The notes under the pieces: model-generated
What the model was told of the DNA's origin: nothing
The model's database searches: none
The model's input: only the letters and a program-made list of their open reading frames with translations
Shown here: in pieces, positions 2,835-64,000 of the stretch
Numbering within the stretch: position 1 is the stretch's first letter
Layout of the letters: every line of letters starts with the position of its first letter
Made by a program: the position numbers and the translations under genes
Assembly: GCA_026391945.1 (NCBI GenBank)
Contig: JAPLDA010000076.1
Span: 13,633-77,632, forward strand
Direction of reading: 5' to 3'
Source of the DNA: Bacteroidota bacterium
GTDB taxonomy: Bacteria > Bacteroidota > Bacteroidia > AKYH767-A > 2013-40CM-41-45
DNA length: 64,000 nt

Positions 2835-2908
2835 CGGGGTGTAGCGTAGCCTGGTAGCGCGTCAGCATGGGGTGCTGGAGGCCGTGGGTTCGAATCCCGC
2901 CACCCCGA
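2835..2908 (+). tRNA. tRNA-Pro, anticodon GGG
   Basis: Cloverleaf read by hand: acceptor CGGGGTG/CACCCCG, T-arm GTGGG-TTCGAAT-CCCGC, anticodon stem TCAGC/GCTGG with loop ATGGGGT (anticodon GGG). CCA is not encoded. Confidence 0.8.
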
Positions 2909-2949
2909 CTCCTTAAACCAAAATCTTTCACTTAGCAAACCATTTTTTC

Positions 2950-9692: not shown

Positions 9693-10205
9693 TCAGTGAC
9701 AAAGTTCTTTGATGACATCATCCACCATTTTGTCTCCGAGTTTTTTGGCCATCTGTAAATCTTCGCAGGCCGATTCACGTTCTCCTGTGTTGTACTTGGC
9801 AATGGCGCGGTTGTAATAACATTCTTTGTCATCGGGATTCAGGAAAATCGCTTTTCCGTAATCAACGATGGCTCCTTTATAATCTTTCATTTCGAATTTT
9901 GCATTTCCCCGGCTGTAATACAGTTCCACACTTTCTGTGTCTGCCTGTTCGATGAGATCGAAGTTGCTGATCGCGCTGGCATAATCTTTCATTTCGAATT
10001 TTGCAAACCCGAGGTTATACAACGCTTCTGCGTTCTTAGGCTCCAGCGCCAATGCCTGTTCAAAATCTTTTGCTGCTCCGGCAAAATCTTTTACACTTTC
10101 TTTCTGGTTGCCGCTTTTAATCAGGTCACCCGCGGTTTTCTGACCGAATGAAGAATGACAAACAAACAGGATGGATAAGAATGCGATTGATTTTTTGATA
10201 GTCAT
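9693..10205 (-). CDS. Secreted tetratricopeptide-repeat protein
   Basis: 170 aa, signal peptide, three or four TPR units (ALYNLGFAKFEMKDY, ELYYSRGNAKFEMKDY). Confidence 0.7.
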   Translation of the reverse strand: MTIKKSIAFLSILFVCHSSFGQKTAGDLIKSGNQKESVKDFAGAAKDFEQALALEPKNAEALYNLGFAKFEMKDYASAISNFDLIEQADTESVELYYSRGNAKFEMKDYKGAIVDYGKAIFLNPDDKECYYNRAIAKYNTGERESACEDLQMAKKLGDKMVDDVIKELCH

Positions 10206-29486: not shown

Positions 29487-31883
29487 TTAAAAACTGAAGT
29501 TATACGTTACACTCGGCAGCATCGGGAACAACGAAATTTGTTTGGCTTGTATGGTGATGGTATTGTTTTCAAACTTGTTGTCGAAATAAATGATGTACGG
29601 ATTGTACCGGTCGTACACATTGAAAACGCTGAAGTTCCAGCTCGACTGGTATTTCTTTTTCTTTTTTCCGTACAAGGTGGCTGAAATATCCAGGCGGTGA
29701 TAGGAGGGAAGACGGTAATTGTTCCGCTGGCTCCCGTAATCTTCCACGATGTTTCCGTTGGAAAGAAAATACAGGCGCTCCGGAAACGTGTTCAGGTTGC
29801 CGGTTGCATACACCCAGGTGGCGCCGAACGTCCAGCGTTTGTTCAGTTCGTACACCAGCACAATGGAGACATCATGCCTCCTGTCGAATTTGGCGAAGTA
29901 GGTGTTGCCGTTGTTCAGGTCGGGAAAATTTCTTTTCGTCCAGGCCAGTGTGTAACCGATCCATCCGTTGAATTTTCCCTTCGCCTTCTTCACAAAAAAT
30001 TCGGCGCCGTAACTCCATCCTTTCCCAAAAACAAAATTGTTGTCCACGTTGTCATTCACCGAATTCTCCGGCATGTAACCGTCCTCGTATTCAATCTGGT
30101 TTTTCATTTCTTTATAATACACCTCAACAGAAGTTTCGTAGAGGTTGTTTTTAAAGTTTCTGAAATATCCCAATGCATATTGAGTTCCGAATTGCGGCTC
30201 TACTTTGTCGGAACTCGGTATCCACACATCGGTAGGAAGTGAAATGGCAGAGAGGGAAGCAAGATGAATGTACTGGTAGTTCTGGGTGTAAGATGCTTTG
30301 ATTGATGAAAGATGGTTGAGTGAATACCTCATGGAAAAACGCGGCTCAAGATGATGATAACTTTTTACACTTTGCCCGCTTGTATAACTGATGGTATCGA
30401 CGATTGTTTTTTTTACCGGGTCTTTGATGAAGCGGTCAAACGGCCCGACTTGCTGAAAGAGCGTGAAGCGCAAGCCACCGTTCAGTTTCAGTTTTTCGCT
30501 GACGTCAAAATCATCGTTGATGTAGAGCGCACCATCGTGGGCATATTCCCTTAAAATTTTTCCGAGATCAAATACCACACTCCCGGATTTTGCGGAAGCA
30601 TTGCTCGGAACAAAAATATGGTAAATGTAATTGACGCCGAACTTCACGGTGTTGCGTACATCCGGAAGCCAGGTGAGATCGGCCTTTGTGCCGTAGTCAG
30701 TAATCCCGGAAAATAATTTGAAGCTGAATACATCCTGCCCTCCCTCAAACTGAAAATTATAATCCGTATAAATCAGCGATGTATTCATGAACAGCTGGTC
30801 GTTGAAGAGATGGTTCCACCGGGCCGTCGCAGTGGCATTTCCCCACGGAACCTTGATGTAAAAACTCGACTTCGGACTTTTGTAATTGAAGACGTCACGG
30901 CCGAAGTAACTGCTCAGGAACAACCTGTTTTTATCTGACAAGCGGTAATTCACTTTTGCATTCAGGTCGTAGAAATAGTATTTATTTCCGTTGATGTTTG
31001 AGGATGCTTTAACAAAAGGTTTTCCCATGAACAGGTCAACAAAGGTTCTTCTTGCCGAGACAATGAATGAACTCGTATCTTTTTTAATCGGGCCCTGAAT
31101 GGTCAGGCGCGAAGCAATGAAACCGATGCCACCGTCCACATTAAATTTTTGGTTGTTTCCTTCTTTCATCTGGATGTCCAGCACGGAAGCGAGGCGTCCG
31201 CCGTAATTGGCAGGCATGCCGCCTTTCGTGAGTGTGATGTTCTGAACTGCATCGGCATTGAACACGGAAAAAAATCCGAACAGGTGAGAAGCGTTGTAAA
31301 CAGTGGCTTCATCGAGAAGGATCAGGTTTTGATCCGGTCCGCCGCCGCGGACATAAAAACCGGTATTGCCTTCGCCGGCAGATTGAACTCCGGGAAGAAG
31401 CTGGATCGATTTCAACACATCCACTTCACCGAGAAAGGAGGGAAGTGTTTTTATCTTTTCTACTTCCAGAGTATTTTTTCCCATCTCAATTCCCTGTACA
31501 TTTTTATCTTCTTTCTCAGCAGTCACCGTTACTTCACGTGTCTCAACCGGTTTGTTATCCAGTGAAACATTCTGACGTACATCTTTATCGAGGTTGATTT
31601 TAAATTGCTGCTCGATGTAACCGATGAATGAAACAACGAGTGTGTAATTTCCTTTTGGAAGAGTGAGCGAATAAAAACCATACGCATTCGTGGACGTGCC
31701 ATGCAAACCTTCTTTCACATACACATTGGTTCCCAAAAGGCTTTCACCTGAGGATGCTTCTTTTACAAATCCGCTGATGGTGTATTTTCTGATCTCCTGG
31801 CCGGGTTTATCCTGTGCAAAAAGGTTTATGGAGAAAAAGCATAGTGAGAGAAAAAAAGAAACTCCCGGGAAGAAGAAACGCAT
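29487..31883 (-). CDS. TonB-dependent receptor (carboxypeptidase-regulatory-like domain, then plug and barrel)
   Basis: 798 aa; signal peptide; N-terminal YTISGFVKEASSGESLLGTNVYV CarbopepD_reg-like block; TonB-box-like region; terminal F. Confidence 0.8.
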   Translation of the reverse strand: MRFFFPGVSFFLSLCFFSINLFAQDKPGQEIRKYTISGFVKEASSGESLLGTNVYVKEGLHGTSTNAYGFYSLTLPKGNYTLVVSFIGYIEQQFKINLDKDVRQNVSLDNKPVETREVTVTAEKEDKNVQGIEMGKNTLEVEKIKTLPSFLGEVDVLKSIQLLPGVQSAGEGNTGFYVRGGGPDQNLILLDEATVYNASHLFGFFSVFNADAVQNITLTKGGMPANYGGRLASVLDIQMKEGNNQKFNVDGGIGFIASRLTIQGPIKKDTSSFIVSARRTFVDLFMGKPFVKASSNINGNKYYFYDLNAKVNYRLSDKNRLFLSSYFGRDVFNYKSPKSSFYIKVPWGNATATARWNHLFNDQLFMNTSLIYTDYNFQFEGGQDVFSFKLFSGITDYGTKADLTWLPDVRNTVKFGVNYIYHIFVPSNASAKSGSVVFDLGKILREYAHDGALYINDDFDVSEKLKLNGGLRFTLFQQVGPFDRFIKDPVKKTIVDTISYTSGQSVKSYHHLEPRFSMRYSLNHLSSIKASYTQNYQYIHLASLSAISLPTDVWIPSSDKVEPQFGTQYALGYFRNFKNNLYETSVEVYYKEMKNQIEYEDGYMPENSVNDNVDNNFVFGKGWSYGAEFFVKKAKGKFNGWIGYTLAWTKRNFPDLNNGNTYFAKFDRRHDVSIVLVYELNKRWTFGATWVYATGNLNTFPERLYFLSNGNIVEDYGSQRNNYRLPSYHRLDISATLYGKKKKKYQSSWNFSVFNVYDRYNPYIIYFDNKFENNTITIQAKQISLFPMLPSVTYNFSF

Positions 31884-33064: not shown

Positions 33065-33453
33065 AATAATCAACTGTTCTATCGCTCCGTTTACACGGAG
33101 AGGAAAGTCCGGGCAACACAGAGCATCCTGCTTCCTAACGGGAAGGGTTCTGCAGCAATGCGGAAAACAGCCAGTGCCACAGAAAATAACTACTCATCAG
33201 AAATGATGAGAAAAGGTGAAAACGTGAGGTAAAAGCTCACGGTCATGGTTGGCGACAACGGTGACGGGTAAACCTCAGGAGTTGAAAAACCAAATAAGTC
33301 CCGATTTTGAAACGGCTCGTTTCAATTCGCCTTTGGCGGATATCGGGATGGGTAGGTTGATAGATGGTGCAGGCAACTGCACTGCCAGATAAATGATAGA
33401 AGTCCTCCGCCTTTGGCGTGAGAAAACAGAACCCGGCTTACAGGTTGGTTATT
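33065..33453 (+). ncRNA. rnpB: RNase P RNA (bacterial type A)
   Basis: Universally conserved GAGGAAAGTCCGGGC (33099-33113) and ACAGAACCCGGCTTA (33426-33440). P3 hairpin ctccg-tttaca-cggag. P1 pairing AAUAAUCAACUG / CAGGUUGGUUAUU. Ends are approximate. Confidence 0.85.
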
Positions 33454-33456
33454 AAA

Positions 33457-35587: not shown

Positions 35588-35768
35588 TTTTTTGTGATCG
35601 GGTTGATTTGAACTTTCAGGCGATTGGGGGAAGTCGGGAATAAAGAATCAAGAGTCAAGAATCAAAAATCAAGAGCATTACCTCAATCGACTTAATCAAC
35701 CATTCAACTCACAAACTAAAAGATGAGAGGACACCGTTGATTAGAAAAAATATTTCAATTGAATGACG

Positions 35769-35852
35769 TGCCCGGAGTGGGACTCGAACCCACAAGGTAA
35801 TTACACCAACGGCTTCTGAGACCGCAACGTTTGCCAATTTCGCCATCCGGGC
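35769..35852 (-). tRNA. tRNA-Leu, anticodon CAG (type II, long variable arm)
   Basis: Reverse complement folds into acceptor GCCCGGA/TCCGGGC, anticodon loop CTCAGAA, 15-nt variable arm, T-arm GTGGG-TTCGAGT-CCCAC. Confidence 0.8.
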
Positions 35853-35918
35853 AAATGCAATTCAGAATGATTTTCTACACTCGTTCAATTCATCATTCTG
35901 AATTCTTAATTCCTAAAG

Positions 35919-35998
35919 TGCCCAGGACGAGAGTCGAACTCGTACGGTTGCCCGCCACCCCCTCAAAGTGGTGCGTCTGCCAATTTCGCCACCTGGGC
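35919..35998 (-). tRNA. tRNA-Leu, anticodon GAG (assignment tentative; the variable arm is only ~11 nt)
   Basis: Reverse complement: acceptor GCCCAGG/CCTGGGC, D-arm identical to the neighbouring tRNA-Leu, anticodon stem CCACT/GGTGG with loop TTGAGGG, T-arm ACGAG-TTCGACT-CTCGT. Confidence 0.65.
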
Positions 35999-46452: not shown

Positions 46453-46527
46453 GTCGGGGTGAGTGGATTCGAACCACCGATCTCAACGTCCCGAACGTTG
46501 CGCGATAACCGGGCTTCGCTACACCCC
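46453..46527 (-). tRNA. tRNA-Pro, anticodon CGG
   Basis: Reverse complement: acceptor CGGGGTG/CACCCCG (same acceptor as the tRNA-Pro at 2835), anticodon stem CAACG/CGTTG with loop TTCGGGA, T-arm GGTGG-TTCGAAT-CCACT. Confidence 0.8.
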
Positions 46528-46635
46528 GAAATCATGTCTCAAAGGAAAGAACATTTTTCATAAATAAAAAAATCCGCTCTGCATTTCAGCAGAACGGACT
46601 TATCAAAACACCACCACTATGTATTTTTAATTTCT

Positions 46636-50305: not shown

Positions 50306-51961
50306 TCAATGAACAACTAATAATTTTTTAGTCAGCTGATCATCTCCGGCACGAAGAGCATACATGTAATAACCGGCAGGGATTTGCGTGACATCCATTT
50401 TAAATTGATGAGCACCGGCACTGAGGTTATTGTTTTCGAGAGTTGCCATTTTATTTCCAACGAGGTCGAAGACTTCCAGTGTCACGTGATCTGGTTTAAC
50501 CAGTTCAAAACTGATGATCGTGGATTCATTCGCCGGGTTCGGGTAATTCTGATCCAGTGTGAATTTATGCTGATGATGTTCCTGTACACCCATGAATGAA
50601 TTTTCTGCATCGAACAACGCAAGCGAAAGAGAGAATGGTCCGCGGGTTTCAATCCAGGCAAAGTCTGCCATGGTAAAGCTAGGGTCAATCACTACCTGCG
50701 GATGCGGGTTATTTAAAATTCCAACCTGGTCGTTGTAAAGTGTAGTGATCATGTTCCAGGATGTAGGAGTTGCCATGTTGAATCCCTGTACATAATAAGG
50801 AAGTTGATTGTTGGTGGAATCCCAATAGGTAACCAGGAAGTTGTTGTAGGTTTCATCGTAGCTGATATCCGGTTGCTGCGCATGATTTCCGGAATAATCA
50901 ACGTAGCCATAATACCAGGCACCTCCAACGGCAATTTTTGAATAAGCTCCTACAATGTCGAGGTCATCGGTGCCGCCCCAGGCGCTTTCCCAAAGCACCA
51001 CTGCGGATAAATCTGAGCTGTCGTTATTTGCCAATGAATTCTGAACACTGATAGCAGGATACCTTCCGTTGTTGTACCAGTTCGAGGTGTATACACTATC
51101 GAGGTAAACCGGTGTTGCATAAGGATCATTAAATAAGGTAGGAGTATACGTTTCTTTGATATGCCCGTAAGGGGCGCCAAAGGCATGCTCATCATAGGCA
51201 ATGAAATAGCGGCCGTTATTTCTGCTTGCTGAATATCCATAAGCGACGGAAACATTTCTGAAAAATAAACTGGAAGCATCCACACCATTCCTGGTTGCGA
51301 ATGTTGCACCGCCATCCGAAGAAACCAGGGAAATAACTGAATCCTGGGGAGATCCATACTTTGAATACACGGCATTCACGCTATAACCCGTTGTAGTAAA
51401 GGCAGGGTGAAGAAAGTCATTGGCAAGTGCCACATCATAAATGGAATCCGAAGTAGTTTCATGCACCGGTTCATTCATAAAAGAACCTGTTGTTGCATCA
51501 TTCCGGTCCACCCAAAGTATATAGGTGCCGGATAAAGGCGTATGCAGGACACTTGTCAAATAAACATGCAAAGAATTGGTGTCGTTACCGGCAACGGAAA
51601 TATCGCAGCCGTAGTAATCGCCGCTATAATGGATCAGGGTATCCCAATCCTGTCCGTGATTTTTGGAACGCATCAGGCAGATACCCCCGCCGTTTGCGTA
51701 ATCAGTCGTGAAGGCGGCATAATTCCATCCATTGAAGGCAGTAGCAATTTTGACATTACTCTGCATTTGAAATGCAGGGTTGATGACGACATCCGACCCG
51801 AATACTAACATCGACGGAGTTTTTACCGGGCCTTTGTTTTTCATGTTCAGCGCTTTTACTTTTTCAGGATCTCCCTTCTGATGATCCGCCGCAAGCATTG
51901 GAGAACTCAGAAAGAGTATGAGTGAAAACGACCATACTAGTTTCATGTAATTTTTTTTCAT
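50306..51961 (-). CDS. Hypothetical secreted protein with T9SS type A C-terminal sorting domain
   Basis: 551 aa; signal peptide; C-terminal NYPNPANESTIISFEL...GYYMYALRAGD resembles the Por secretion tail. Central domain not recognised. Confidence 0.6.
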   Translation of the reverse strand: MKKNYMKLVWSFSLILFLSSPMLAADHQKGDPEKVKALNMKNKGPVKTPSMLVFGSDVVINPAFQMQSNVKIATAFNGWNYAAFTTDYANGGGICLMRSKNHGQDWDTLIHYSGDYYGCDISVAGNDTNSLHVYLTSVLHTPLSGTYILWVDRNDATTGSFMNEPVHETTSDSIYDVALANDFLHPAFTTTGYSVNAVYSKYGSPQDSVISLVSSDGGATFATRNGVDASSLFFRNVSVAYGYSASRNNGRYFIAYDEHAFGAPYGHIKETYTPTLFNDPYATPVYLDSVYTSNWYNNGRYPAISVQNSLANNDSSDLSAVVLWESAWGGTDDLDIVGAYSKIAVGGAWYYGYVDYSGNHAQQPDISYDETYNNFLVTYWDSTNNQLPYYVQGFNMATPTSWNMITTLYNDQVGILNNPHPQVVIDPSFTMADFAWIETRGPFSLSLALFDAENSFMGVQEHHQHKFTLDQNYPNPANESTIISFELVKPDHVTLEVFDLVGNKMATLENNNLSAGAHQFKMDVTQIPAGYYMYALRAGDDQLTKKLLVVH

Positions 51962-53650: not shown

Positions 53651-53693
53651 TTATTTTTCCTGTATGAGGGCGGTAAGCTTTTCCAGTGAAGAT

Positions 53694-54494
53694 TTATTCA
53701 AACATGAACGAGAGGACAAATACTTTAGAGAAGAGTGCTTCAATCGGGCGGGAGTACATTTTTCCATCCTGCTGAAACATGTTATTCAATCCATGGTACA
53801 TTTTTATTTCAGGAGAGAATTTAAAATAAGGCATGTAGAAATCAAAACCAAGCCCGATCTCGTAACCGTAATCGTATCGTTTTAATTTGACAATGTCTTT
53901 GTCTTTCGCATCCACGCTTGCCTGTGAAATCATGTCGATCGAATATTTAAAACCGGCCAGCACATAAATCCGGTAATTCGTAATCCTCCTCGATTTGAAT
54001 TTCAGGTCAACCGGAAATTCAAGGTAATTGGATTCAATGGTTTTAACAGCCATTCCCTGCAGGGAATCGGAATAGATGAAATTGTAATTCAGGTTACGCT
54101 GCGCAAACGAAAGCGACGGAATGAAACGGAGGTCAAAGGACTCCCCAATCCTGAGGTTGGCAAGGATACCAAGGTTCAGGCCGGCAATGGGTTCTGATTC
54201 CAGGGAGTAAACACTGTCGCGGATCCTGAAATCAGGAACGAGGTTGATGTTGAAATCACTCAGGTTCATGCCCAGCGTAAATCCAAAGTGTATTTTCTGA
54301 TGGTCATACCTGGGAAGGTTCATCACACCCTGTCGTTGGGCTGATGTATAAAATGGCGACCCAAGCAGGATGAGAAAGAGAAAATATATTTTTCTCAACC
54401 CATGATCAAGTTGTTTTTGTACTGTGGATTTCATCCTTCTTCTTTCCTGTTTTAGCCTTTTACTTCTTTCCTGCATAAATGGATACAACGCCAA
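53694..54494 (-). CDS. PorT-like outer-membrane beta-barrel protein. True start probably the internal Met preceding the signal peptide, near 54431.
   Basis: Signal peptide IYFLFLILLGSPFYTSAQ; ~230-aa beta-barrel pattern; C-terminal Phe-rich strand. Confidence 0.55.
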   Translation of the reverse strand: MALYPFMQERSKRLKQERRRMKSTVQKQLDHGLRKIYFLFLILLGSPFYTSAQRQGVMNLPRYDHQKIHFGFTLGMNLSDFNINLVPDFRIRDSVYSLESEPIAGLNLGILANLRIGESFDLRFIPSLSFAQRNLNYNFIYSDSLQGMAVKTIESNYLEFPVDLKFKSRRITNYRIYVLAGFKYSIDMISQASVDAKDKDIVKLKRYDYGYEIGLGFDFYMPYFKFSPEIKMYHGLNNMFQQDGKMYSRPIEALFSKVFVLSFMFE

Positions 54495-55188
54495 AGGTAA
54501 GCGGTTTACAGGTCACCTGTTTAAAACCGGCATCTGAAAAAATACGGAGGAAGTCGCCGCCTTCCGGGAAAGCTTCAACGGATTCATATAAATAAGAGTA
54601 GGCCGCATCATCTTTCGAAACAGCTTTGCCAATCATCGGGCAGATTTTTGTGGAATAAAAATGATAAAATGTTTTGACCAGTTTGTTTTTGGGTTTTGAA
54701 AATTCAAGAATGACAACCGTTCCTCCCGGCCTGAGCACGCGGTACATTTCACGAAGTCCTTTTTCCAGGTGTTCAAAATTTCTCACGCCGAATGCAACGG
54801 TAATCGCGTCGAATTTATTGTCTTCGAACAGCAGGTTTTCAGAATCCGATTCGATGAGTTCAATCGTCTGTTGCAGTTTCCGTTTTTTGATTTTATCTCT
54901 CCCGATGCTGATCATATCAGAAGAAATATCAACACCGAAAATTTTTTCCGGGTGAAGTTTCATCGCAGCGAAGGCGAGGTCGGCAGTGCCCGTTGCAATA
55001 TCAAGGATCAGCTTCGGATGTTCGCTTTCAAGTACCCTGATGGTTTGTTTTCTCCAATACGTATCGATTCCGAACGAAAGAAAGTGATTGAGAAAATCGT
55101 AACGCCAGGCAATGTTGTTAAACATAGCAGCGACCTGGTGTTTTTTACCAAGAGAGGAATTTTTATAAGGCGTGACTTTTTCCTGCAT
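54460..55188 (-). CDS. ubiE: Demethylmenaquinone / ubiquinone biosynthesis C-methyltransferase
   Basis: 242 aa; VAAMFNNIAWRYDFLN and SAM motif LDIATGTADLA. Confidence 0.85.
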   Translation of the reverse strand: MQEKVTPYKNSSLGKKHQVAAMFNNIAWRYDFLNHFLSFGIDTYWRKQTIRVLESEHPKLILDIATGTADLAFAAMKLHPEKIFGVDISSDMISIGRDKIKKRKLQQTIELIESDSENLLFEDNKFDAITVAFGVRNFEHLEKGLREMYRVLRPGGTVVILEFSKPKNKLVKTFYHFYSTKICPMIGKAVSKDDAAYSYLYESVEAFPEGGDFLRIFSDAGFKQVTCKPLTFGVVSIYAGKK

Positions 55189-55192
55189 GATT

Positions 55193-56194
55193 TCAGAAAA
55201 TCTTCAGTTCGCCGGCTTCGGCAAGAAGCTGGTCGCGTTCAACAGGAACAACCCCCACCTTTTCACAAACGAGTCCGCCGGCGAGGTTCGCCAGTGTGGC
55301 CATGGTGACAGGAGAAAGTTTCAAGGCCAGGCACAGTGCCGCCACGCTGATCACGGTATCGCCGGCGCCGGAGACATCGGCAATGTTGCGGACATGGGCA
55401 GGCACCAGTTTTTCTTCTTTTGCCGTGTACAGAAAAGCTCCGCGTTCCGACAACGTTACGAGAACAGCATCGAGGTGATGTTCGGTGGCCAGTTTGGCAA
55501 CAGCATTCCTGATTTCGGTGATGTTGCCTTTTTCAAATTCCACTTTCATGCCTTCCTTTAACTCTTTCAGGTTTGGTTTCAGCAGCGTGATGTTCCGGTA
55601 GTGGTTGAAATTTTTTTTCTTCGGATCAGCAGCCGTTGGAATTTTTTTCGCCTGTGCCAGCTTCACCACCTGTTCCACCAGGTTTTTTGTGATGACGCCT
55701 TTGTCGTAATCTTCGAAGACGATGACGTCGATTTTATTTTTTCGGGTGAGTTCTGAAATTCTGTTCAGCAATTGTTTTCTTTCACCGGTAGAAATGTCAC
55801 CATCCACTTCATCATCCACGCGAAGCATCTGGTGGTTGTTCCCGATCACTCTTGTTTTCATGGTTGTCGGCCGGTCGGTGCTCTGGATGATTCCTTCCGT
55901 CGACATTCCCATTTGCTGTAACAATTCAACGAACGTCCTGCCGGTAGCATCATTCCCAATCACCGAACACAACACCGGTTTGGCACCGAGCGATTGAATG
56001 TTGATGGCGACATTGGCCGCGCCGCCCAGCCGGTTCTCGCGTTTGGTAATGGTAACAACAGGAACCGGAGCTTCCGGGGAAATGCGTTCCACTTTTCCCC
56101 AGAGGTATGCATCGAGCATCACATCGCCAACGATCAACACATTCAGTTTCCTGAATTCTTCGAAAAGCCGTGTGATGTTTTTTATCTTATTCAT
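55193..56194 (-). CDS. D-glycero-beta-D-manno-heptose-7-phosphate kinase (RfaE/HldE domain I, pfkB family)
   Basis: 333 aa; VLIVGDVMLDAYLWGKVERISPEAPVPVV N-terminal signature; C-terminal pfkB GAGDT motif. Confidence 0.75.
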   Translation of the reverse strand: MNKIKNITRLFEEFRKLNVLIVGDVMLDAYLWGKVERISPEAPVPVVTITKRENRLGGAANVAINIQSLGAKPVLCSVIGNDATGRTFVELLQQMGMSTEGIIQSTDRPTTMKTRVIGNNHQMLRVDDEVDGDISTGERKQLLNRISELTRKNKIDVIVFEDYDKGVITKNLVEQVVKLAQAKKIPTAADPKKKNFNHYRNITLLKPNLKELKEGMKVEFEKGNITEIRNAVAKLATEHHLDAVLVTLSERGAFLYTAKEEKLVPAHVRNIADVSGAGDTVISVAALCLALKLSPVTMATLANLAGGLVCEKVGVVPVERDQLLAEAGELKIF

Positions 56195-56275
56195 GGGATA
56201 AGATTCGTTAATAAAAAATTATGAATCGAAATAAAAATGAATGCGGCTCAACAGGAGTCGCCATCGATGGATACA

Positions 56276-57484
56276 TTATTTCAGTTTCTCCAGCGCTTCT
56301 TTGATTCTCCGGATGGCTTCCACCAGCCTGTCGTCGGCAGCGGCATAAGAAAAGCGTACACAATGATCATCGCCGAATGCTTCACCGGTAACAATGGATA
56401 CATGCGCTTTGTGCAACAGGTACATGCACATGTCGGTGGCATTGCGAATGGTAGTTTCTCCGTCACTTTTTCCGAAGTAAGAACTTACATCCGGGAAAAC
56501 GTAAAACGCTCCTTTCGGTTCGTTGATTTTCCATCCTGGAATTTCTTTCATCAGTTTGACCACGAGGTTTCTTCTCCTCCTGAAAGCTTCTTTCATTTCC
56601 AGTGTCGGTTTCAGATCGCTGGTCAGAGCTTTTTCAGCAGCCTTTTGGGAAATGGAACAGGTGCCCGATGTAATTTGTCCCTGCATCTTATCGCATGCAT
56701 CAGCAATCCATTTCGGCGCTCCCATGTAACCGATTCTCCAGCCCGTCATGGCGAAACTTTTTGACAAACCGTTTACCACGATCACGCGTTCTTTGATCGA
56801 ATCGAATTCGGCAATGCTCTGGTGGCGGTCAAGAAAATTGATGTGCTCATAAATTTCATCGGAGAGCACATATACATTTGGATATTTTGCCAACACATCA
56901 GCAAACGCTTTCAGCTCATCACGTGTAAAAACACTTCCTGTCGGGTTGCACGGTGATGAGAAAATAAATAATTTGGTATTGGGCGTGATGGCAGCTTCCA
57001 GTTGCTCCGGCGTTATTTTATAATCACTTTCGATGGGTGATTTCACCGGGATCACTTTTCCTTCGGCCAGTTTCACCACTTCAATATAACTCACCCAATA
57101 GGGAAGGGGAATGATCACTTCATCGCCCGGGTTCACCAGGCTCAGGATGATGTTGGCAATCGCCTGCTTGGCGCCGGTGGAAACCACGATTTGTTCGGGC
57201 TTGAAGTCGAGGTTGTTTTCTCTCTTGAACTTTGCCGAGATTGCTTTTCTTAACTCAGGGAAACCGGAGATGGGCGAGTAAAAGGTAAAGCCGTCGTCGA
57301 TGGCTTTTTTTGCAGCTTCACGGATATGATCCGGTGTGATGAAGTCCGGTTCGCCCAGGCTCAGGTTGATGACATCAAATCCTTTTGCCGAAAGTTCGCG
57401 GCTGAGTTTAGACATACCGATGGTCTGGCTTTCCTCGAGGGAATTGATACGGTCCGATAACGGATTTTTTTCTAATGTTAGCAT
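56276..57484 (-). CDS. Class I/II PLP aminotransferase (aspartate aminotransferase-like). Start chosen at internal Met MLTLEKN; the ORF extends to 57541.
   Basis: PLP Lys context SKSFAMTGWRIGY; N-terminal LSDRINSLEESQT typical of AspAT. Confidence 0.75.
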   Translation of the reverse strand: MLTLEKNPLSDRINSLEESQTIGMSKLSRELSAKGFDVINLSLGEPDFITPDHIREAAKKAIDDGFTFYSPISGFPELRKAISAKFKRENNLDFKPEQIVVSTGAKQAIANIILSLVNPGDEVIIPLPYWVSYIEVVKLAEGKVIPVKSPIESDYKITPEQLEAAITPNTKLFIFSSPCNPTGSVFTRDELKAFADVLAKYPNVYVLSDEIYEHINFLDRHQSIAEFDSIKERVIVVNGLSKSFAMTGWRIGYMGAPKWIADACDKMQGQITSGTCSISQKAAEKALTSDLKPTLEMKEAFRRRRNLVVKLMKEIPGWKINEPKGAFYVFPDVSSYFGKSDGETTIRNATDMCMYLLHKAHVSIVTGEAFGDDHCVRFSYAAADDRLVEAIRRIKEALEKLK

Positions 57485-57661
57485 GTAGCTGCAAACGTAC
57501 ATCATTCTTTTTAATGGGTAAAATCCGCCCACCTGATTCATGTCATTTGTTAAGAAAAAAGAATAGCTTACTGTTTCCTCTTTTCAAAATAATGTACATT
57601 TTTAAAATAATTATGCAGTTGCTTCGTTCCTCTTTCATTAAAACTTTACTTTCTTTGTAGC

Positions 57662-58714
57662 ATGGTAAAAACCAGACTTTTCCTGTTTCTTCTCTTGCTC
57701 AGCGCAACTTCTCTGTTTGCCCAGCAGCAGGTGGGCGGCAGTTATGTATACGGGTTTCTTGATGTCCCCGCTTCCGCAAGGACAGCCGCACTCGGAGGCA
57801 CATTCATCTCTGCAAAAGACAACGACCTGAATGTGGCTTTGCAAAATCCATCTGTGCTGAATCCCGGGATGAACAACCAACTTTTGTTAAACGGTGTTCT
57901 TTATTTTGACGGGGTTAAATTCGGTGATGCCGGTTATGCGAAGGACTTTGGAAAGGCCGGAACATTCATGGCGAACATGCATTATGCGAATTACGGACAG
58001 TTCCTGGAGGCGGATATTACCGGGGAGATCGTTGGTAAGTTTCATGCGGCCGATTACAACCTGAACATCGGCTGGGGATACCGCATGAATGAACTTTTTT
58101 CGGTGGGAGCGAACCTGAAAACCATTTACAGCAATTATTATTATTACAATTCTTTCGGAGCCGGTGCTGATCTGGCGGCTACGTTGTATGATTCCATCAG
58201 CCAGTTTACGTTAGCCGTTGTCGCAAAAAACATGGGTGTCATGCTGAAGGATTATGTGAAGGCCGACAATGAACCGTTTCCTGTGGAAGTTGAAATTGCC
58301 GCTTCAAAAAGATTGATTCATACTCCTTTCAGGTTTAACCTCACGTACCGTCATCTGGAGAAATTAGACCTCACCTATACCGATCCCAATGATGCTTCGC
58401 TGGTTGATCCATTAACGGGAGCGGCCAAGGTGAAGACCTATGATCTTTTTGATTTACTTTCCAGTCATATCATTTTTGCAACCGAAATTCTCCTCACACA
58501 GAATTTTCATTTGCGGGCAGCTTATAATTTCCAGAGACGGCAGGATCTCAGGGTGGATACCAGCCCGGGCACGGTTGGACTTTCATTCGGGTTCGGAATA
58601 AAAATTAACAAGTTCAACATCGGTTACGGACGCGCGGCTTATCACAATGCCGGGGCAGCCAATCACTTTTCAATTTCCACGAACCTTTCGGAGTTTATAA
58701 AGAAGTCGAACTAA
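57662..58714 (+). CDS. Outer-membrane beta-barrel protein, possibly a T9SS PorQ/PorP(SprF)-like component
   Basis: 350 aa; signal peptide ending FAQQQ; alternating beta-strand pattern. Family assignment is from memory of the architecture only. Confidence 0.45.
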   Translation: MVKTRLFLFLLLLSATSLFAQQQVGGSYVYGFLDVPASARTAALGGTFISAKDNDLNVALQNPSVLNPGMNNQLLLNGVLYFDGVKFGDAGYAKDFGKAGTFMANMHYANYGQFLEADITGEIVGKFHAADYNLNIGWGYRMNELFSVGANLKTIYSNYYYYNSFGAGADLAATLYDSISQFTLAVVAKNMGVMLKDYVKADNEPFPVEVEIAASKRLIHTPFRFNLTYRHLEKLDLTYTDPNDASLVDPLTGAAKVKTYDLFDLLSSHIIFATEILLTQNFHLRAAYNFQRRQDLRVDTSPGTVGLSFGFGIKINKFNIGYGRAAYHNAGAANHFSISTNLSEFIKKSN

Positions 58715-58744
58715 CTTTTATTCTTCTGTTAAAACTTCGTTTCT

Positions 58745-59524
58745 TTGTTCAGGAAATCCATGAACCCATTTCACCCCGATCCGAATACATTTTATCTTAT
58801 GAATGACGAACGATCTGCTGATCCGGGAAAAATTATCATTGCCATTGATGGTTATTCTTCCTGCGGCAAAAGCACACTGGCAAAAGCACTGGCCCGGACG
58901 CTGCATTATCATTTCATTGATTCCGGATCGATGTACCGCGCTGTTACCCATTACCTCGTTGAGCACGGCATTTCCCTCGATCAGCTTCATTCCTTGTCGC
59001 CCGTTGAGATGGAAGCATTGCTCGATAATATTCACATCACTTTTCGCGTGAACCCTTCAACCGGTTTTTCAGAAGTGCACTTGAACGGAAAAAATGTGGA
59101 GTCGTTTATCCGGGAGTTGAAAGTATCGGATCTTGTAAGCCCGGTGAGCGCTATCGCCGCCATCCGGAAAAGAATGGTGAAGCTTCAGCAGAGTTACGAC
59201 GATCATAAGGGAATTGTGATGGATGGAAGAGACATCGGTACCAAAGTTTTTCCTCACGCCGAATTGAAGATATTCATGACAGCCAACAATGCCATCCGCG
59301 CCAAAAGAAGATTCGATGAGCTTTGTGCCAAAGGGTATATGGTTACGATGGATGAAGTGTACCGGAACATCGAAGAGCGCGATTACGCCGATACCCACCG
59401 CTCGGAAAGTCCGTTAAGAAAAGCCGATGACGCCATCGTGCTGGATAACTCTGACATGAATGAACAACAACAACTGGATTTTGCATTGAACGAGTTGAAG
59501 AGAATGGGAGTTGAGATAAGTTAA
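58745..59524 (+). CDS. cmk: (d)CMP kinase
   Basis: IIIAIDGYSSCGKST P-loop and SGSMYRAVT. Start may be an internal Met near 58799. Confidence 0.85.
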   Translation: MFRKSMNPFHPDPNTFYLMNDERSADPGKIIIAIDGYSSCGKSTLAKALARTLHYHFIDSGSMYRAVTHYLVEHGISLDQLHSLSPVEMEALLDNIHITFRVNPSTGFSEVHLNGKNVESFIRELKVSDLVSPVSAIAAIRKRMVKLQQSYDDHKGIVMDGRDIGTKVFPHAELKIFMTANNAIRAKRRFDELCAKGYMVTMDEVYRNIEERDYADTHRSESPLRKADDAIVLDNSDMNEQQQLDFALNELKRMGVEIS

Positions 59525-59636
59525 AAGTTAAAAGTTCAAGATCATAAGCATCTCTGATCCCTTTTTTCAAAGTTGATCACTGCCTACTGCCCACTATGAA
59601 CTGCCCACTGTCAACCCAAAACCCTACCTTTGCCCA

Positions 59637-60635
59637 ATGAAAATCACCATCGATCCGCATTCAGGTTTTTGTTTTGGAGTTGTGTATGCCATCCAAATGG
59701 CGGAGGAAGAACTCGACCGTTCCGGAAAACTTTATTGTCTCGGCGATATCGTTCACAACAACATGGAAGTGGAAAGGCTTCGGTCAGCCATCCAAATGGC
59801 GGAGGAAGAACTCGACCGTTCCGGAAAACTTTATTGTCTCGGCGATATCGTTCACAACAACATGGAAGTGGAAAGGCTTCGGTCAAGAGGCCTTGAGATC
59901 ATTGATCATGAGCGAATGAAAACGCTGCACGATTGCAAGGTGCTGATCCGTGCTCATGGAGAACCGCCGGAAACATACCAGGTTGCTTTGAAGAACAACA
60001 TTGAACTGATCGATGCCTCATGCCCGGTTGTACTGAAACTTCAACACCGCGTGCGAACAAGTTTTGAAGATGTTGAAATCCATGATGGACAGATCGTCAT
60101 TTACGGAGAAGAAGGCCATGCAGAAGTGAACGGGCTTGTCGGCCAGACGGAAGGCAAAGCCATCATCGTAAAAACGGAAGAAGACTTGTCTAAAATTGAT
60201 TTTACCAAACCGGTTTATTTCTTTTCTCAAACAACGAAAAGCACGAAAGGTTTTGAGCAGATGAAAGAAATGATTCAGCAGCGTGTGATCAGCGCTACCG
60301 GTAACGATAACCCGGTTTCAGAAGAAGCCTTCGAATCGAACGACACCATTTGCCGCCAGGTTTCCAATCGTGAACCTCAATTGAAAAATTTTTCGCGGGA
60401 GCATGATGTGGTTGTTTTCGTGAGCGGGAAAAAGAGTTCGAACGGAAAAGCGCTTTATGAAGTATGCAAATCGGTTAACCCGGCCACCTATTTTGTTTCC
60501 GATGTGGATGAGATTCAATCAGCCTGGTTTGAAAAAGCCGCTTCAGTCGGGATCTGCGGCGCCACTTCCACACCGATGTGGCTGATGGAAAAAGTAGCGG
60601 AGTTTGTGAAACAACTGGCCACCACTGAGGTTTAG
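59637..60635 (+). CDS. ispH: 4-hydroxy-3-methylbut-2-enyl diphosphate reductase. Carries an in-frame 33-codon tandem duplication near the N-terminus.
   Basis: MKITIDPHSGFCFGVVYAI (Cys1 region), later Cys/His motifs, C-terminal GICGATSTP. Confidence 0.85.
   Translation: MKITIDPHSGFCFGVVYAIQMAEEELDRSGKLYCLGDIVHNNMEVERLRSAIQMAEEELDRSGKLYCLGDIVHNNMEVERLRSRGLEIIDHERMKTLHDCKVLIRAHGEPPETYQVALKNNIELIDASCPVVLKLQHRVRTSFEDVEIHDGQIVIYGEEGHAEVNGLVGQTEGKAIIVKTEEDLSKIDFTKPVYFFSQTTKSTKGFEQMKEMIQQRVISATGNDNPVSEEAFESNDTICRQVSNREPQLKNFSREHDVVVFVSGKKSSNGKALYEVCKSVNPATYFVSDVDEIQSAWFEKAASVGICGATSTPMWLMEKVAEFVKQLATTEV
59688..59885 (+). repeat. Perfect direct tandem duplication, 2 x 99 bp, inside ispH
   Basis: gccatccaaatggcggaggaagaactcgaccgttccggaaaactttattgtctcggcgatatcgttcacaacaacatggaagtggaaaggcttcggtca occurs at 59688-59786 and again at 59787-59885 with no mismatch. 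Confidence 0.9.
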
Positions 60636-60841
60636 GAACCATTCGTAAAAGCTGCGAATGGTTTGCATTTTCGACGATTCAGGTTCATCGGGTTGCATCC
60701 CCCAAATGACCTCAAAAAATCCCGGGATCCGCTAAGATTTCCTTTTTGATTTCCAGTAAATTTTAATACATTTGCGTCCCTTTTGGGTAAAAGGGATGAA
60801 TTGAAAAATTCATTATTGTCTAACCATTTTAAAAAGAATAA

Positions 60842-62803
60842 ATGATTACCGAAGCTGAAGAAATTACCAATCCATCCCCTGAAATTCCTGAAACCGTTGT
60901 GGCTGCGCCAAAACCGTTCATATTCAATTGGGATAGCGTCGACACCAAGGGTGGCGAAAATTATACTGCAGAAGAGCGAAGCCGTCTTGAACAGATTTAT
61001 GACAACACGCTGAACTCCGTTGTGGAGCACGAAATCGTGGAAGGAACCGTTGTTTCCATTTCTTCCAAAGATGTATTGATTAACATTGGATTCAAATCAG
61101 ACGGACTCGTTCCGCTGACAGAATTCCGCCACATGCCCGATTTGAAAATCGGCGATAAGGTGGAAGTATATGTAGAGACACAGGAAGACAAGAATGGCCA
61201 GTTAATTCTTTCTCACAAACAGGCACGCGCATTGAAATCATGGGATCGCGTGAATGCTGCTTTGGAAAAGGAAGAAGTGATCCAGGGTTTTGTAAAATGC
61301 CGCACCAAAGGCGGTTTGATCGTGGACGTATTCGGTATCGAAGCGTTCCTTCCGGGTTCGCAAATCGATGTGAAGCCAATCCGCGACTACGATCAGTTTG
61401 TCGGCAAGACGATGGAATTCAAAGTCGTTAAGATCAACAACGAATTCAAGAACGTAGTGGTATCTCATAAGATATTGATTGAAGAAGAACTCGAGCAGCA
61501 GAAAGCAGAAATCATGAAGAAGCTCGAGAAAGGCCAGGTTCTCGAAGGAACGGTGAAGAACATTACGTCGTACGGAGTATTCATGGATCTCGGGGGTGTC
61601 GACGGACTTCTGCACATCACGGATATTTCATGGGGAAGAATTTCCCATCCTGAAGAAGTTCTCAAACTCGATCAGAAAGTCAACGTGGTTATTCTTGATT
61701 TCGATGATGAGAAAAAGAGAATTGCTCTTGGTTTGAAACAACTCACTCCGCATCCTTGGTCACAGCTCGATGAAAATCTTAAAGTAGGCGATAAGGTAAA
61801 AGGTAAAGTGGTGGTGATTGCCGATTACGGCGCTTTCGTGGAAATCACACAAGGTGTGGAAGGATTGATTCACGTTTCAGAAATGTCGTGGTCGCAGCAT
61901 TTACGCAGCCCGCATGAGTTCCTGAAAGTAGCGGATGAAATAGAAGCCGTGATCCTCACCCTCGACCGCGAAGAGCGTAAAATGTCGCTTGGTATCAAAC
62001 AACTGAAACCGGATCCGTGGACGAATGTTGCATTGAAATATCCTGTAGGTTCCAAACATAAATCCACCGTAAAGAACTTCCAGAATTTCGGAGTGTTCGT
62101 TGAACTGGAAGAGGGAATCGACGGGCTGGTTCACATTTCTGATTTATCATGGCAGAAAAAAATCAAGCATCCTTCCGAGTTCTGCAAAATCGGCGATCCG
62201 ATGGAAGTGGTGGTGCTTGAAGTGGATGCTGAAAACCGCAGGCTCAGCCTTGGTCACAAGCAACTCGAAGACAATCCATGGGAAGTTTTTGAAACCATCT
62301 TCACCCTTGATTCCATTCATGAGGGAACGCTGATTAAACTCACCGACAAAGGCGCCATCATCGCATTGCCTTATGGCATCGAAGGATTCGCACCGGCCAA
62401 ACACCTCGTGAAGGAAGATGGAAGGACGTTGAAGGTTGACGAAAAAGCTGAGTTCAAGATTTTAGAATTCTCGAAGGAGAACAAACGGATTCTTGTTTCA
62501 CACAGCCGCCTGCATGAGGAAAAAACAATGCATGCCCGCAACGCTGAACATTCTGAAAAAGAAAGAGACCGCGATGAAGGAGCAAAAGCGGTGAAGAAAA
62601 TCAAGGAGAGCCAGGAGAAAACTACGCTTGGAGATCTTTCCGTTCTTTCCAATTTGAAAAATGAAATGGAAAGTGCCGAGAAGAAATCAAGAACTAAAAA
62701 AGCGGAAGAAGAAGCTGCAGTGAACGGTGCGGTGAATGGCGCCGTTAATGATTCTGCTTCTGAAGAAGTGAAAGCAAGCGAAGAAGAAAAGAAAGAAGAA
62801 TAA
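60842..62803 (+). CDS. rpsA: 30S ribosomal protein S1
   Basis: 653 aa; six S1 domains; C-terminal low-complexity tail (AAVNGAVNGAVND, EEEKKEE). Confidence 0.9.
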   Translation: MITEAEEITNPSPEIPETVVAAPKPFIFNWDSVDTKGGENYTAEERSRLEQIYDNTLNSVVEHEIVEGTVVSISSKDVLINIGFKSDGLVPLTEFRHMPDLKIGDKVEVYVETQEDKNGQLILSHKQARALKSWDRVNAALEKEEVIQGFVKCRTKGGLIVDVFGIEAFLPGSQIDVKPIRDYDQFVGKTMEFKVVKINNEFKNVVVSHKILIEEELEQQKAEIMKKLEKGQVLEGTVKNITSYGVFMDLGGVDGLLHITDISWGRISHPEEVLKLDQKVNVVILDFDDEKKRIALGLKQLTPHPWSQLDENLKVGDKVKGKVVVIADYGAFVEITQGVEGLIHVSEMSWSQHLRSPHEFLKVADEIEAVILTLDREERKMSLGIKQLKPDPWTNVALKYPVGSKHKSTVKNFQNFGVFVELEEGIDGLVHISDLSWQKKIKHPSEFCKIGDPMEVVVLEVDAENRRLSLGHKQLEDNPWEVFETIFTLDSIHEGTLIKLTDKGAIIALPYGIEGFAPAKHLVKEDGRTLKVDEKAEFKILEFSKENKRILVSHSRLHEEKTMHARNAEHSEKERDRDEGAKAVKKIKESQEKTTLGDLSVLSNLKNEMESAEKKSRTKKAEEEAAVNGAVNGAVNDSASEEVKASEEEKKEE

Positions 62804-62825
62804 TCGCTTTGTTCTGAAATAAAAA

Positions 62826-62857
62826 ACCTTTCGCTTCGATGCGGAAGGTTTTTTTTT
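62826..62857 (+). terminator. Rho-independent terminator after rpsA
   Basis: cctttcgc-ttcgat-gcggaagg followed by T9. Confidence 0.75.
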
Positions 62858-62974
62858 GACCTGAACCAGTTCTTTTTTAAACGAGGGAAAGCAAGATGAA
62901 AAAGTTAACAAGATAATTTTGAGATGGGTAATAATTATTCCGGAGATTTCACGTAAGTTTGAACCGCTTCTCCT

Positions 62975-63514
62975 ATGCAAAAACGATTACTGCTTAACAG
63001 TAAACATTTTGAAATCACCATCAGCAGGCTTTGTTACCAGCTGATCGAGAATCACAATGATTTTTCCCAATCCGCGCTGATCGGCTTGCAACCAAGGGGT
63101 GTTTTTGTGGCGAGGAGAATTCACCGCCGGCTTTCTGAGATTCTGAACAGTGAAAAAATTCTGATTGGTGACCTCGATATTACCTTTCACCGGGACGATT
63201 ACCGCCGGCGCGATATCATCCTGCCCAGCGAAACAAAACTGAATTTTTCGGTTGATGATAGAAAGGTGATCCTGATCGATGACGTCCTGTACACGGGAAG
63301 AACGATCAGGGCCGGCATGGATGCATTGCTCGATTTCGTCCGCGCCAAAAAAATTGAGTTGCTCACACTGGTCGACAGGCGCTACAGCCGCCATCTCCCG
63401 ATTGAGCCCGACTACATCGGGATCCAGGTGGATACCATCCTGTCGGAAAAAGTGAAAGTGTACTGGAAAGAAACGGACGGGGAAGATGCGGCATGGCTGA
63501 TAACAGAAAAATAG
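62975..63514 (+). CDS. pyrR: Bifunctional pyr operon regulator / uracil phosphoribosyltransferase
   Basis: 179 aa; PRPP-binding VILIDDVLYTGRTIRA; immediately upstream of pyrB. Confidence 0.85.
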   Translation: MQKRLLLNSKHFEITISRLCYQLIENHNDFSQSALIGLQPRGVFVARRIHRRLSEILNSEKILIGDLDITFHRDDYRRRDIILPSETKLNFSVDDRKVILIDDVLYTGRTIRAGMDALLDFVRAKKIELLTLVDRRYSRHLPIEPDYIGIQVDTILSEKVKVYWKETDGEDAAWLITEK

Positions 63515-63521
63515 ATTCGTG

Positions 63522-64000
63522 ATGATATCAAGGTTAAGTTCAAAACACCTCCTCGGAATCAAAGGCCTTTCAAAAGAAGACATTGAACTGATCTTGTCCA
63601 CCGCCGATAATTTCAAAGACGTTCTGAACCGGCCGGTAAAAAAAATTCCTTCGCTTCGCGACGTGACGATTGCGAATTTGTTTTTCGAAAATTCAACCCG
63701 CACCAGGTTGTCGTTCGAACTGGCCGAACGCAGGTTGTCGGCTGACGTGGTTAATTTCGCCGCTTCCTCTTCATCGGTGAGCAAGGGAGAAACCCTCATC
63801 GACACGGTTAAAAATATTCTCGCCATGAAAGTGGACATTGTGGTGATGCGTCATCCCAATCCCGGCGCCGCCGTATTCCTGGCCAAGCACATCGATTCAA
63901 AAATCATCAATGCCGGCGACGGCGCCCACGAGCATCCTACGCAGGCTTTGCTCGATGCGTATTCCATCCGGGAAAAATTCGGAGAGGTGAAAAATAAAAG
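63522..64000 (+). CDS. pyrB: Aspartate carbamoyltransferase catalytic subunit, 3' partial (runs off window)
   Basis: MISRLSSKHLLGIKGLSKEDIE...FENSTRTR (STRTR carbamoyl-phosphate motif) ... HPTQALLD. Confidence 0.85.
   Translation, partial: MISRLSSKHLLGIKGLSKEDIELILSTADNFKDVLNRPVKKIPSLRDVTIANLFFENSTRTRLSFELAERRLSADVVNFAASSSSVSKGETLIDTVKNILAMKVDIVVMRHPNPGAAVFLAKHIDSKIINAGDGAHEHPTQALLDAYSIREKFGEVKNK

Follow-up and report, generated by a model that had tools for sequence, protein, structure and literature searches.

The ispH gene of the window (the whole 64-kb stretch of DNA analysed here) contains a segment of 99 nt which is written twice, head to tail and without any difference between the copies. 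We consider it very probable that the second copy is a 99-nt overlap between contig ends which was left untrimmed during assembly or scaffolding of the MAG, and that the true gene is an ordinary ispH coding for 299 aa. A genuine duplication, either fixed or present in a minority of cells, is unlikely; in that case a unit made up of helix a1, strand b2, the His-Asn motif and helix a2 would have been duplicated in frame only very recently, and the duplication would be segregating or fixed in a Bacteroidota population of Lac Pavin.

Tandem Repeats Finder places the array at 59688-59885, with a period of 99, 2.0 copies, 100% matches, 0 indels and a score of 396. Direct string comparison gave the same result: copy 1 (59688-59786, plus strand, codons 18-50) is identical to copy 2 (59787-59885, plus strand, codons 51-83), so that the perfect in-frame 99-bp tandem duplication described by the first-pass annotation could be confirmed. 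The identity ends sharply on both sides (T at 59687 versus A at 59786, and A at 59886 versus G at 59787). The microhomology at the junction is therefore 0 nt and the array comprises exactly 2.0 copies. At the junction (59786/59787) the sequence reads ...GGAAAGGCTTCGGTCA followed directly by GCCATCCAAATGGCGG..., and the junction 40-mer is GGAAGTGGAAAGGCTTCGGTCAGCCATCCAAATGGCGGAG. In a single-copy arrangement the unit is bounded by GTGTAT/GCCATCC and CGGTCA/AGAGGCC (the slash marks the boundary; longer forms are TTGTGTATGCCATCCAAA and GCTTCGGTCAAGAGGCCT), which lie 99 nt apart. The repeat starts at a codon boundary (codon 18) of the ORF 59637-60635 and is in frame. Each unit encodes the 33 residues AIQMAEEELDRSGKLYCLGDIVHNNMEVERLRS and begins six residues past Cys12, in agreement with the earlier statement that 33 extra residues follow the first cluster cysteine.

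Among periods of 30-400 nt no other perfect tandem duplication occurs in the 64-kb window, nor is there a further 100% direct repeat of at least 30 nt; the number of Ns in the window is 0. A perfect match of 99 nt cannot have arisen by chance. A mobile element, an intein or a programmed repeat was rejected as the origin, because the unit consists of conserved coding sequence of the usual IspH type, does not differ from the adjacent copy and has no further match in the window. Only one other tandem array in the window scores 60 or above, an imperfect 37-nt repeat (50780-50851, 2.0 copies, 77% matches) inside the minus-strand ORF 50306-51961. In addition, a 48-nt direct repeat with 77% identity is found at 9879-9926 and 9981-10028 (spacing 102 nt, the first 24 nt identical, ATAATCTTTCATTTCGAATTTTGC), which may represent a repeated protein motif or a regulatory element.

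The assignment of the gene to ispH (4-hydroxy-3-methylbut-2-enyl diphosphate reductase; 59637-60635, plus strand; 332 aa as written, 299 aa minus one unit) holds. Its product matches the Pfam profile LYTB (PF02401) with an E-value of 3.2e-89 and 299 bits (cutoff 24.5), over the full length of the profile, the match being split into two stretches by the duplication. Among the IspH structures in the PDB it resembles those of Aquifex (3DNF, 3e-46) and E. coli (1e-26). Three conserved cysteines, C12, C96 and C197 in E. coli, bind the [4Fe-4S] cluster (PMC9745026); the corresponding residues C12, C129 and C239 of the 332-aa form (in single-copy numbering C12, C96 and C206) do not vary among the 120 sequences compared. 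Likewise invariant among these 120 sequences are the columns of H73 (with its duplicate H40), H107, H161, E163, T200 and S267-S268-N269. The substrate-binding and proton-relay residues of the E. coli enzyme (His41, His74, His124, Glu126, Thr167 and Ser225-Ser226-Asn227) thus all have their counterparts in the product. His41 of E. coli, which is His40 in the IspH of the window, is described as essential for catalysis (PMC9745026).

The segment had been described before as a helix-loop, which is wrong. According to the alignment to E. coli IspH and an AF2 model of a single-copy homologue, the 33 residues comprise the greater part of helix a1 (residues 13-29), then strand b2 (32-35) and the conserved His-Asn motif, and lastly helix a2 (42-50). 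Bacterial IspH proteins normally consist of three a/b domains with about 290-320 aa; the 299-aa form fits this architecture and the 332-aa form as written does not.

Upstream of ispH lies cmk (cytidylate kinase; 58745-59524, plus strand; PF02224, 7.5e-62), and downstream rpsA, coding for ribosomal protein S1 with six S1 domains (60842-62803, plus strand; PF00575, 5e-83). The order cmk-ispH-rpsA is repeated in the sole other contig that was aligned, which belongs to a different species. Elsewhere the window harbours a bacterial class A RNase P RNA (33066-33456, plus strand; full-length Rfam match, 245 bits) and four tRNA genes, namely a tRNA-Leu(CAG)/tRNA-Leu(GAG) pair 66 nt apart (35768-35998, minus strand), tRNA-Pro(GGG) and tRNA-Pro(CGG) (2835-2909, plus strand, and 46453-46528, minus strand).

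Studying the relatives reveals the single-copy state throughout. In a collection of about 15 billion proteins, which evidently lacks the products of genes truncated at a contig end (for example the 296-aa product of L081, one of the contigs treated below), the 332-aa IspH occurs once, as MCX6291914.1 from a Bacteroidetes bacterium MAG (contig of 112,198 nt). This protein sits alone in its own 90% cluster and so resembles a unique IspH variant. By BLASTP the identity of its nearest 119 homologues does not exceed 78%, a limit that rises to about 84% if the gap is discounted; these proteins comprise 292-316 aa, plus one of 329 aa which has an N-terminal extension. A search for an internal repeat in these 119 homologues gave none. 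A second copy of the 33-aa segment is absent from 82 of 82 other ispH loci (80 loci of GTDB species representatives, one contig of the JGI collection and one Logan contig), compared with two copies in the window. In the JGI metagenome contigs the junction 32-mer does not occur, and a unit-internal 30-mer matched only another species, with 70-79% nucleotide identity and in single copy. The suggestion that these relatives would be Chitinophagaceae was not confirmed. The nearest genomes are unclassified freshwater Bacteroidota MAGs, and the identity of their IspH reaches no more than about 78-84%.

Three genes of the window were looked up by their exact protein, namely rpsA, a gene for 350 aa upstream of cmk and the gene of a TonB-dependent receptor 30 kb away; each look-up returned one contig. 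All three contigs belong to the Logan assembly of SRR20698644 (that with the exact rpsA product is SRR20698644_163786), and no other run was found. The 332-aa ispH product has no exact match in the gene-position index, and the same holds for two other products of the window. The receptor (29490-31883, minus strand; CarboxypepD_reg, Plug and OMP barrel) is found beside a DUF4249 protein on its matching Logan contig, a typical outer-membrane uptake pair of Bacteroidota.

According to Table S1 of Jaffe et al. 2023 (PMC9875498), run SRR20698644 corresponds to sample LacPavin_0818_WC45 of project PRJNA852163, taken from the water column at 45 m on 2017-10-10, and the same table gives HiSeq 4000 with 150-nt paired reads for the sequencing. 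The assemblies of this project were made per sample with MEGAHIT 1.2.9 at default settings, followed by IDBA-UD scaffolding after He et al. (PMC9875498). Among the relatives there is another MAG of PRJNA852163 (JAPLDB01), whose naming style is the same as that of the MCX6291914.1 record. From the exact-protein look-ups, the accession era and the naming we infer that the MAG of the window was derived from sample WC45 by the published pipeline.

The three Logan contigs are 4.6-21.6 kb long, and two of them cover the surroundings of ispH. L082 aligns to window positions 53662-59535 with 2 mismatches in 5874 nt (a later start is called for cmk on this contig, giving 254 aa), and bases 43-4256 of L081 align to 59787-64000 with 3 mismatches in 4214 nt. 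With matches of 99.93-99.97%, contigs and window represent the same population. The five single-base differences in about 10 kb compared are located at 60572, 60582, 63339 and two sites within 53662-59535. Two of them fall into ispH and are synonymous (Thr312 ACA/ACG and Leu316 CTG/TTG), which fits strain-level polymorphism with purifying selection on ispH.

Bases 1-141 of L081 align with 100% identity to window positions 59646-59786, so that the contig passes from 42 nt of left flank through one 99-nt unit into the right flank without a break and continues rightward for 4.1 kb. A check of the 30 junction-spanning 31-mers against L081 and L082 gave no match (0/30). Within the repeat region covered by L081 the junction 59786/59787 is the only sequence that is not found in the independent assembly.

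This result has to be read with the construction of Logan in mind. Logan contigs are based on unitigs with k=31, singleton k-mers are dropped, and the graph is simplified by Minia3, with low-coverage connections being removed (PMC12424806). As all 31-mers within the contig file of one accession are distinct by construction (PMC12424806), no Logan contig is able to show a perfect repeat twice. The argument consequently is based not on the number of copies but on the fact that L081 is unbroken at both unit boundaries. By graph reasoning, a duplication carried by the majority of the population would add an edge of normal coverage from the end of the unit to its start, which would create a branch at both boundaries and stop the contig. 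Such an edge, being normally covered, should survive the simplification by Minia3. Therefore, in the Logan graph the junction edge is either absent or weak enough to have been removed by cleaning.

The same construction might be taken to mean that the MAG is right and that the k=31 assembly collapsed a true duplication, because distinct 31-mers bar any Logan contig from showing both perfect copies (PMC12424806). However, a collapse leaves branches behind and the contig should then end at about 59688 or 59786, and L081 extends leftward for another 42 nt and rightward for another 4.1 kb, which makes an error on the side of Logan extremely improbable. Of the two origins considered by the first-pass annotation, a recent event or an assembly artefact, the evidence favours the latter, there being one copy in the assembly of the same run. 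Reads supporting only one copy had been named as the sign of such an artefact, and an independent assembly derived from the reads of SRR20698644 comes close to providing this.

The position of the repeat also deserves attention. L082 stops at window position 59535, inside an AAGTTAA microsatellite, and L081 begins at 59646, in codon 4 of ispH. Hence the cmk-ispH spacer together with the first 9 nt of ispH (59536-59645) is covered by neither contig and marks a breakpoint of the graph in the Logan assembly. The repeat starts 42 nt to the right of this breakpoint. By a rough estimate only about 2-5% of window positions are as near to a Logan break as the repeat is. Closeness to a break is predicted by an artefact of contig joining. 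It is not predicted by a real duplication, because the branches of the latter would fall at 59688 and 59786. There is a misfit, however: an overlap with k=99 that is anchored at the Logan breakpoint should occupy 59646-59744 and not 59688-59786, so the simplest model with one variant misses the coordinates.

Two 7-nt repeats are found in this region, AAGTTAA in 2.7 copies (59518-59536) and a CACTGCC-like repeat in 4.7 copies (59578-59610). The uncovered 110-nt spacer suggests two co-existing spacer alleles or a very low coverage in the lake population. In the related Lac Pavin MAG mentioned above, ispH is closely followed on its downstream side by a long (CAACCTAT)n / (CAACCTTT)n microsatellite (positions 1140-1233 of the locus).

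How a segment of exactly this length may have been written twice is suggested by the way such assemblies are made. De Bruijn assemblers break where more than one path exists and leave identical ends, of length maxK in MEGAHIT and metaSPAdes and of maxK-1 in IDBA_UD (PMC10914622). For IDBA_UD with maxk=100, or for k lists ending at 99, this 'determined length' is 99 bp, and the default k list of MEGAHIT includes 99 (COBRA paper, PMC10914622). The length of the repeat thus equals both the maxk of 100 of IDBA_UD minus 1 and one of the default k values of MEGAHIT, although the k used in scaffolding may differ. Because the final k of MEGAHIT is 141, an overlap of 99 nt would need either a contig whose assembly ended at k=99 or an IDBA-UD step run at k=100. 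The COBRA authors discourage the use of IDBA_UD scaffolds, as scaffolding may introduce errors (PMC10914622). Chen et al. 2020 report that scaffold joins with overlapping flanks keep duplicate sequence, besides wrong repeat numbers and artificial concatenation, and suspect such local assembly errors to be prominent with IDBA-UD (PMC7111523). A literature search on '99 bp' duplications with IDBA-UD gave nothing specific, and one on artificial duplication in general gave only papers on plant and animal assemblies.

The following course of events would account for the sequence. The population would carry a single-copy ispH of 299 aa, and a de Bruijn breakpoint would leave two contigs or graph edges, one ending and the other beginning with the identical 99 nt. 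If these were concatenated without removal of the shared end, the 99 nt would be written twice; the frame would be kept, and the annotator would call an IspH of 332 aa. The reading frame survives such a paste because 99 = 3 x 33. Directly observed are the repeat, the presence of one copy in the Logan contig of this run and in every relative, and the pipeline of the project; the exact step that left the overlap untrimmed we infer. The 'collapse' named by the first-pass annotation as the mechanism is not appropriate, since the error would be one of joining or expansion, namely an untrimmed contig-end overlap.

Pasting two contigs with a common end of 99 nt reproduces the observed pattern exactly: two flawless copies side by side, a junction free of microhomology and an intact frame. 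The lack of microhomology at the junction is expected of a paste error and not of replication slippage. The copies are identical and adjacent, the junction is missing from the Logan assembly (a test at the level of assemblies), and the Logan breakpoint is 42 nt away. As to the features of genuine slippage or recombination, the boundary microhomology is 0 nt and the duplication was seen neither in independent assemblies and samples nor in relatives. Against an artefact it has to be said that assemblers normally do not invent junction k-mers, though scaffolders and joiners can.

This last point also speaks for a real, recent in-frame duplication at low frequency, of which the MAG would have taken the minority path, the junction edge of low coverage being removed in the cleaning by Logan. 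The output of a de Bruijn assembler normally needs junction k-mers that are present in reads, and the population is polymorphic, as indicated by 5 SNPs in about 10 kb between the assemblies and by the unassembled spacer. If copy 1 were part of the fold, the context of Cys12 and His40 would be kept and the additional 33 aa would come to lie at the a2/b3 turn, where they might be tolerated. Moreover, Logan discards singleton k-mers and low-coverage connections and hence would hide a minor allele (PMC12424806). On the other hand, 99 nt would then coincide by chance with the overlap lengths of the assemblers, the junction has no microhomology and the repeat adjoins an assembly breakpoint. MEGAHIT, too, retains the better-covered path of a bubble, and a minor allele should therefore be missing from the main contig. 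We regard a duplication in a minority of cells as improbable.

A duplication that is real and fixed, or carried by the majority, with a functional IspH possibly backed by a second ispH elsewhere, seems very improbable. It would agree with the position of the repeat in frame and at a codon boundary, with every catalytic residue intact, with its presence in the deposited MAG and annotation, and with the differences in ispH between the assemblies, which are only synonymous and point to purifying selection. But any paste error of 99 nt keeps the frame automatically, the population was found in no other run, and the unbroken course of L081 across both unit boundaries cannot be reconciled with a normally covered junction edge.

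The modelling also belongs here. For the 332-aa form with the 119 homologues AF2 gave a mean pLDDT of 77.8 and a pTM of 0.69. Residues 11-49, which comprise the Cys12 ligand loop and copy 1, are below 50, and copy 2 is placed in the fold. For a single-copy homologue the mean pLDDT is 87.8 and no residue falls below 50. The weak model over residues 11-49 might be held against a fixed duplication, but this contrast is partly alignment-driven. Because MAFFT aligned every homologue to copy 2, the choice of copy 2 and the disorder of copy 1 follow from the alignment. It is equally conceivable that copy 1 takes the place in the fold and that copy 2 protrudes as a loop at the a2/b3 turn, in which case the context of Cys12 and His40 would be native. 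Thus the model of the insert, proposed earlier as a check of structural tolerance, was made, and its alignment-driven outcome favours neither a tolerated nor an untolerated insert. The predicted structures neither support nor exclude a functional duplicated enzyme, and they carry no weight for or against the reality of the duplication.

Should the second copy be an untrimmed overlap, as we think, 33 residues of the GenBank protein MCX6291914.1, an essential enzyme, are spurious. MAGs assembled with MEGAHIT or scaffolded with IDBA-UD could then be screened for perfect tandem repeats of the size k or k-1 (99, 119, 141...). Whenever k can be divided by 3, paste errors of this size escape frame-based quality control and end up in protein databases as 'insertions'. 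If, on the contrary, the duplication were true, an essential [4Fe-4S] enzyme would possess two candidate copies of the segment with the catalytic histidine. It would then show, as a snapshot from nature, how segment duplication begins in a trefoil enzyme which itself was perhaps born by duplication. This would be a modest natural experiment on the tolerance of the IspH fold and no new kind of system.

In comparison to canonical IspH/LytB proteins (E. coli 3F7T/3KE8 and Aquifex aeolicus 3DNF) the single-unit form of 299 aa is colinear with 3DNF over residues 3-294 and shares with them the three cluster cysteines and the His, Glu, Thr and Ser-Ser-Asn residues of substrate binding. The form as written in the window differs by 33 additional residues between Cys12 and strand b3. 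In-frame tandem duplications of a segment within an enzyme are reportedly known from the helix duplications of T4 lysozyme, where they are said to have been verified at the DNA or protein level. The repeat in ispH is similar to these in being a head-to-tail duplication of a secondary-structure unit of which either copy could fill the native position. Natural duplications of segments, however, usually show junction microhomology or divergence of the copies, and the repeat of the window shows neither, with one copy in the independent data. The scaffolding case of Chen et al. differs in having Ns between the duplicated flanks, which the repeat of the window does not have (PMC7111523). With the untrimmed contig-end overlaps described in the literature (PMC10914622; PMC7111523) the repeat has in common the identical adjacent copies, the closeness to a breakpoint of an independent assembly and the absence from this assembly and from all relatives; its length of 99 nt would fit IDBA_UD at a maxk of 100 or a k value of MEGAHIT, and the project used MEGAHIT with IDBA-UD scaffolding.
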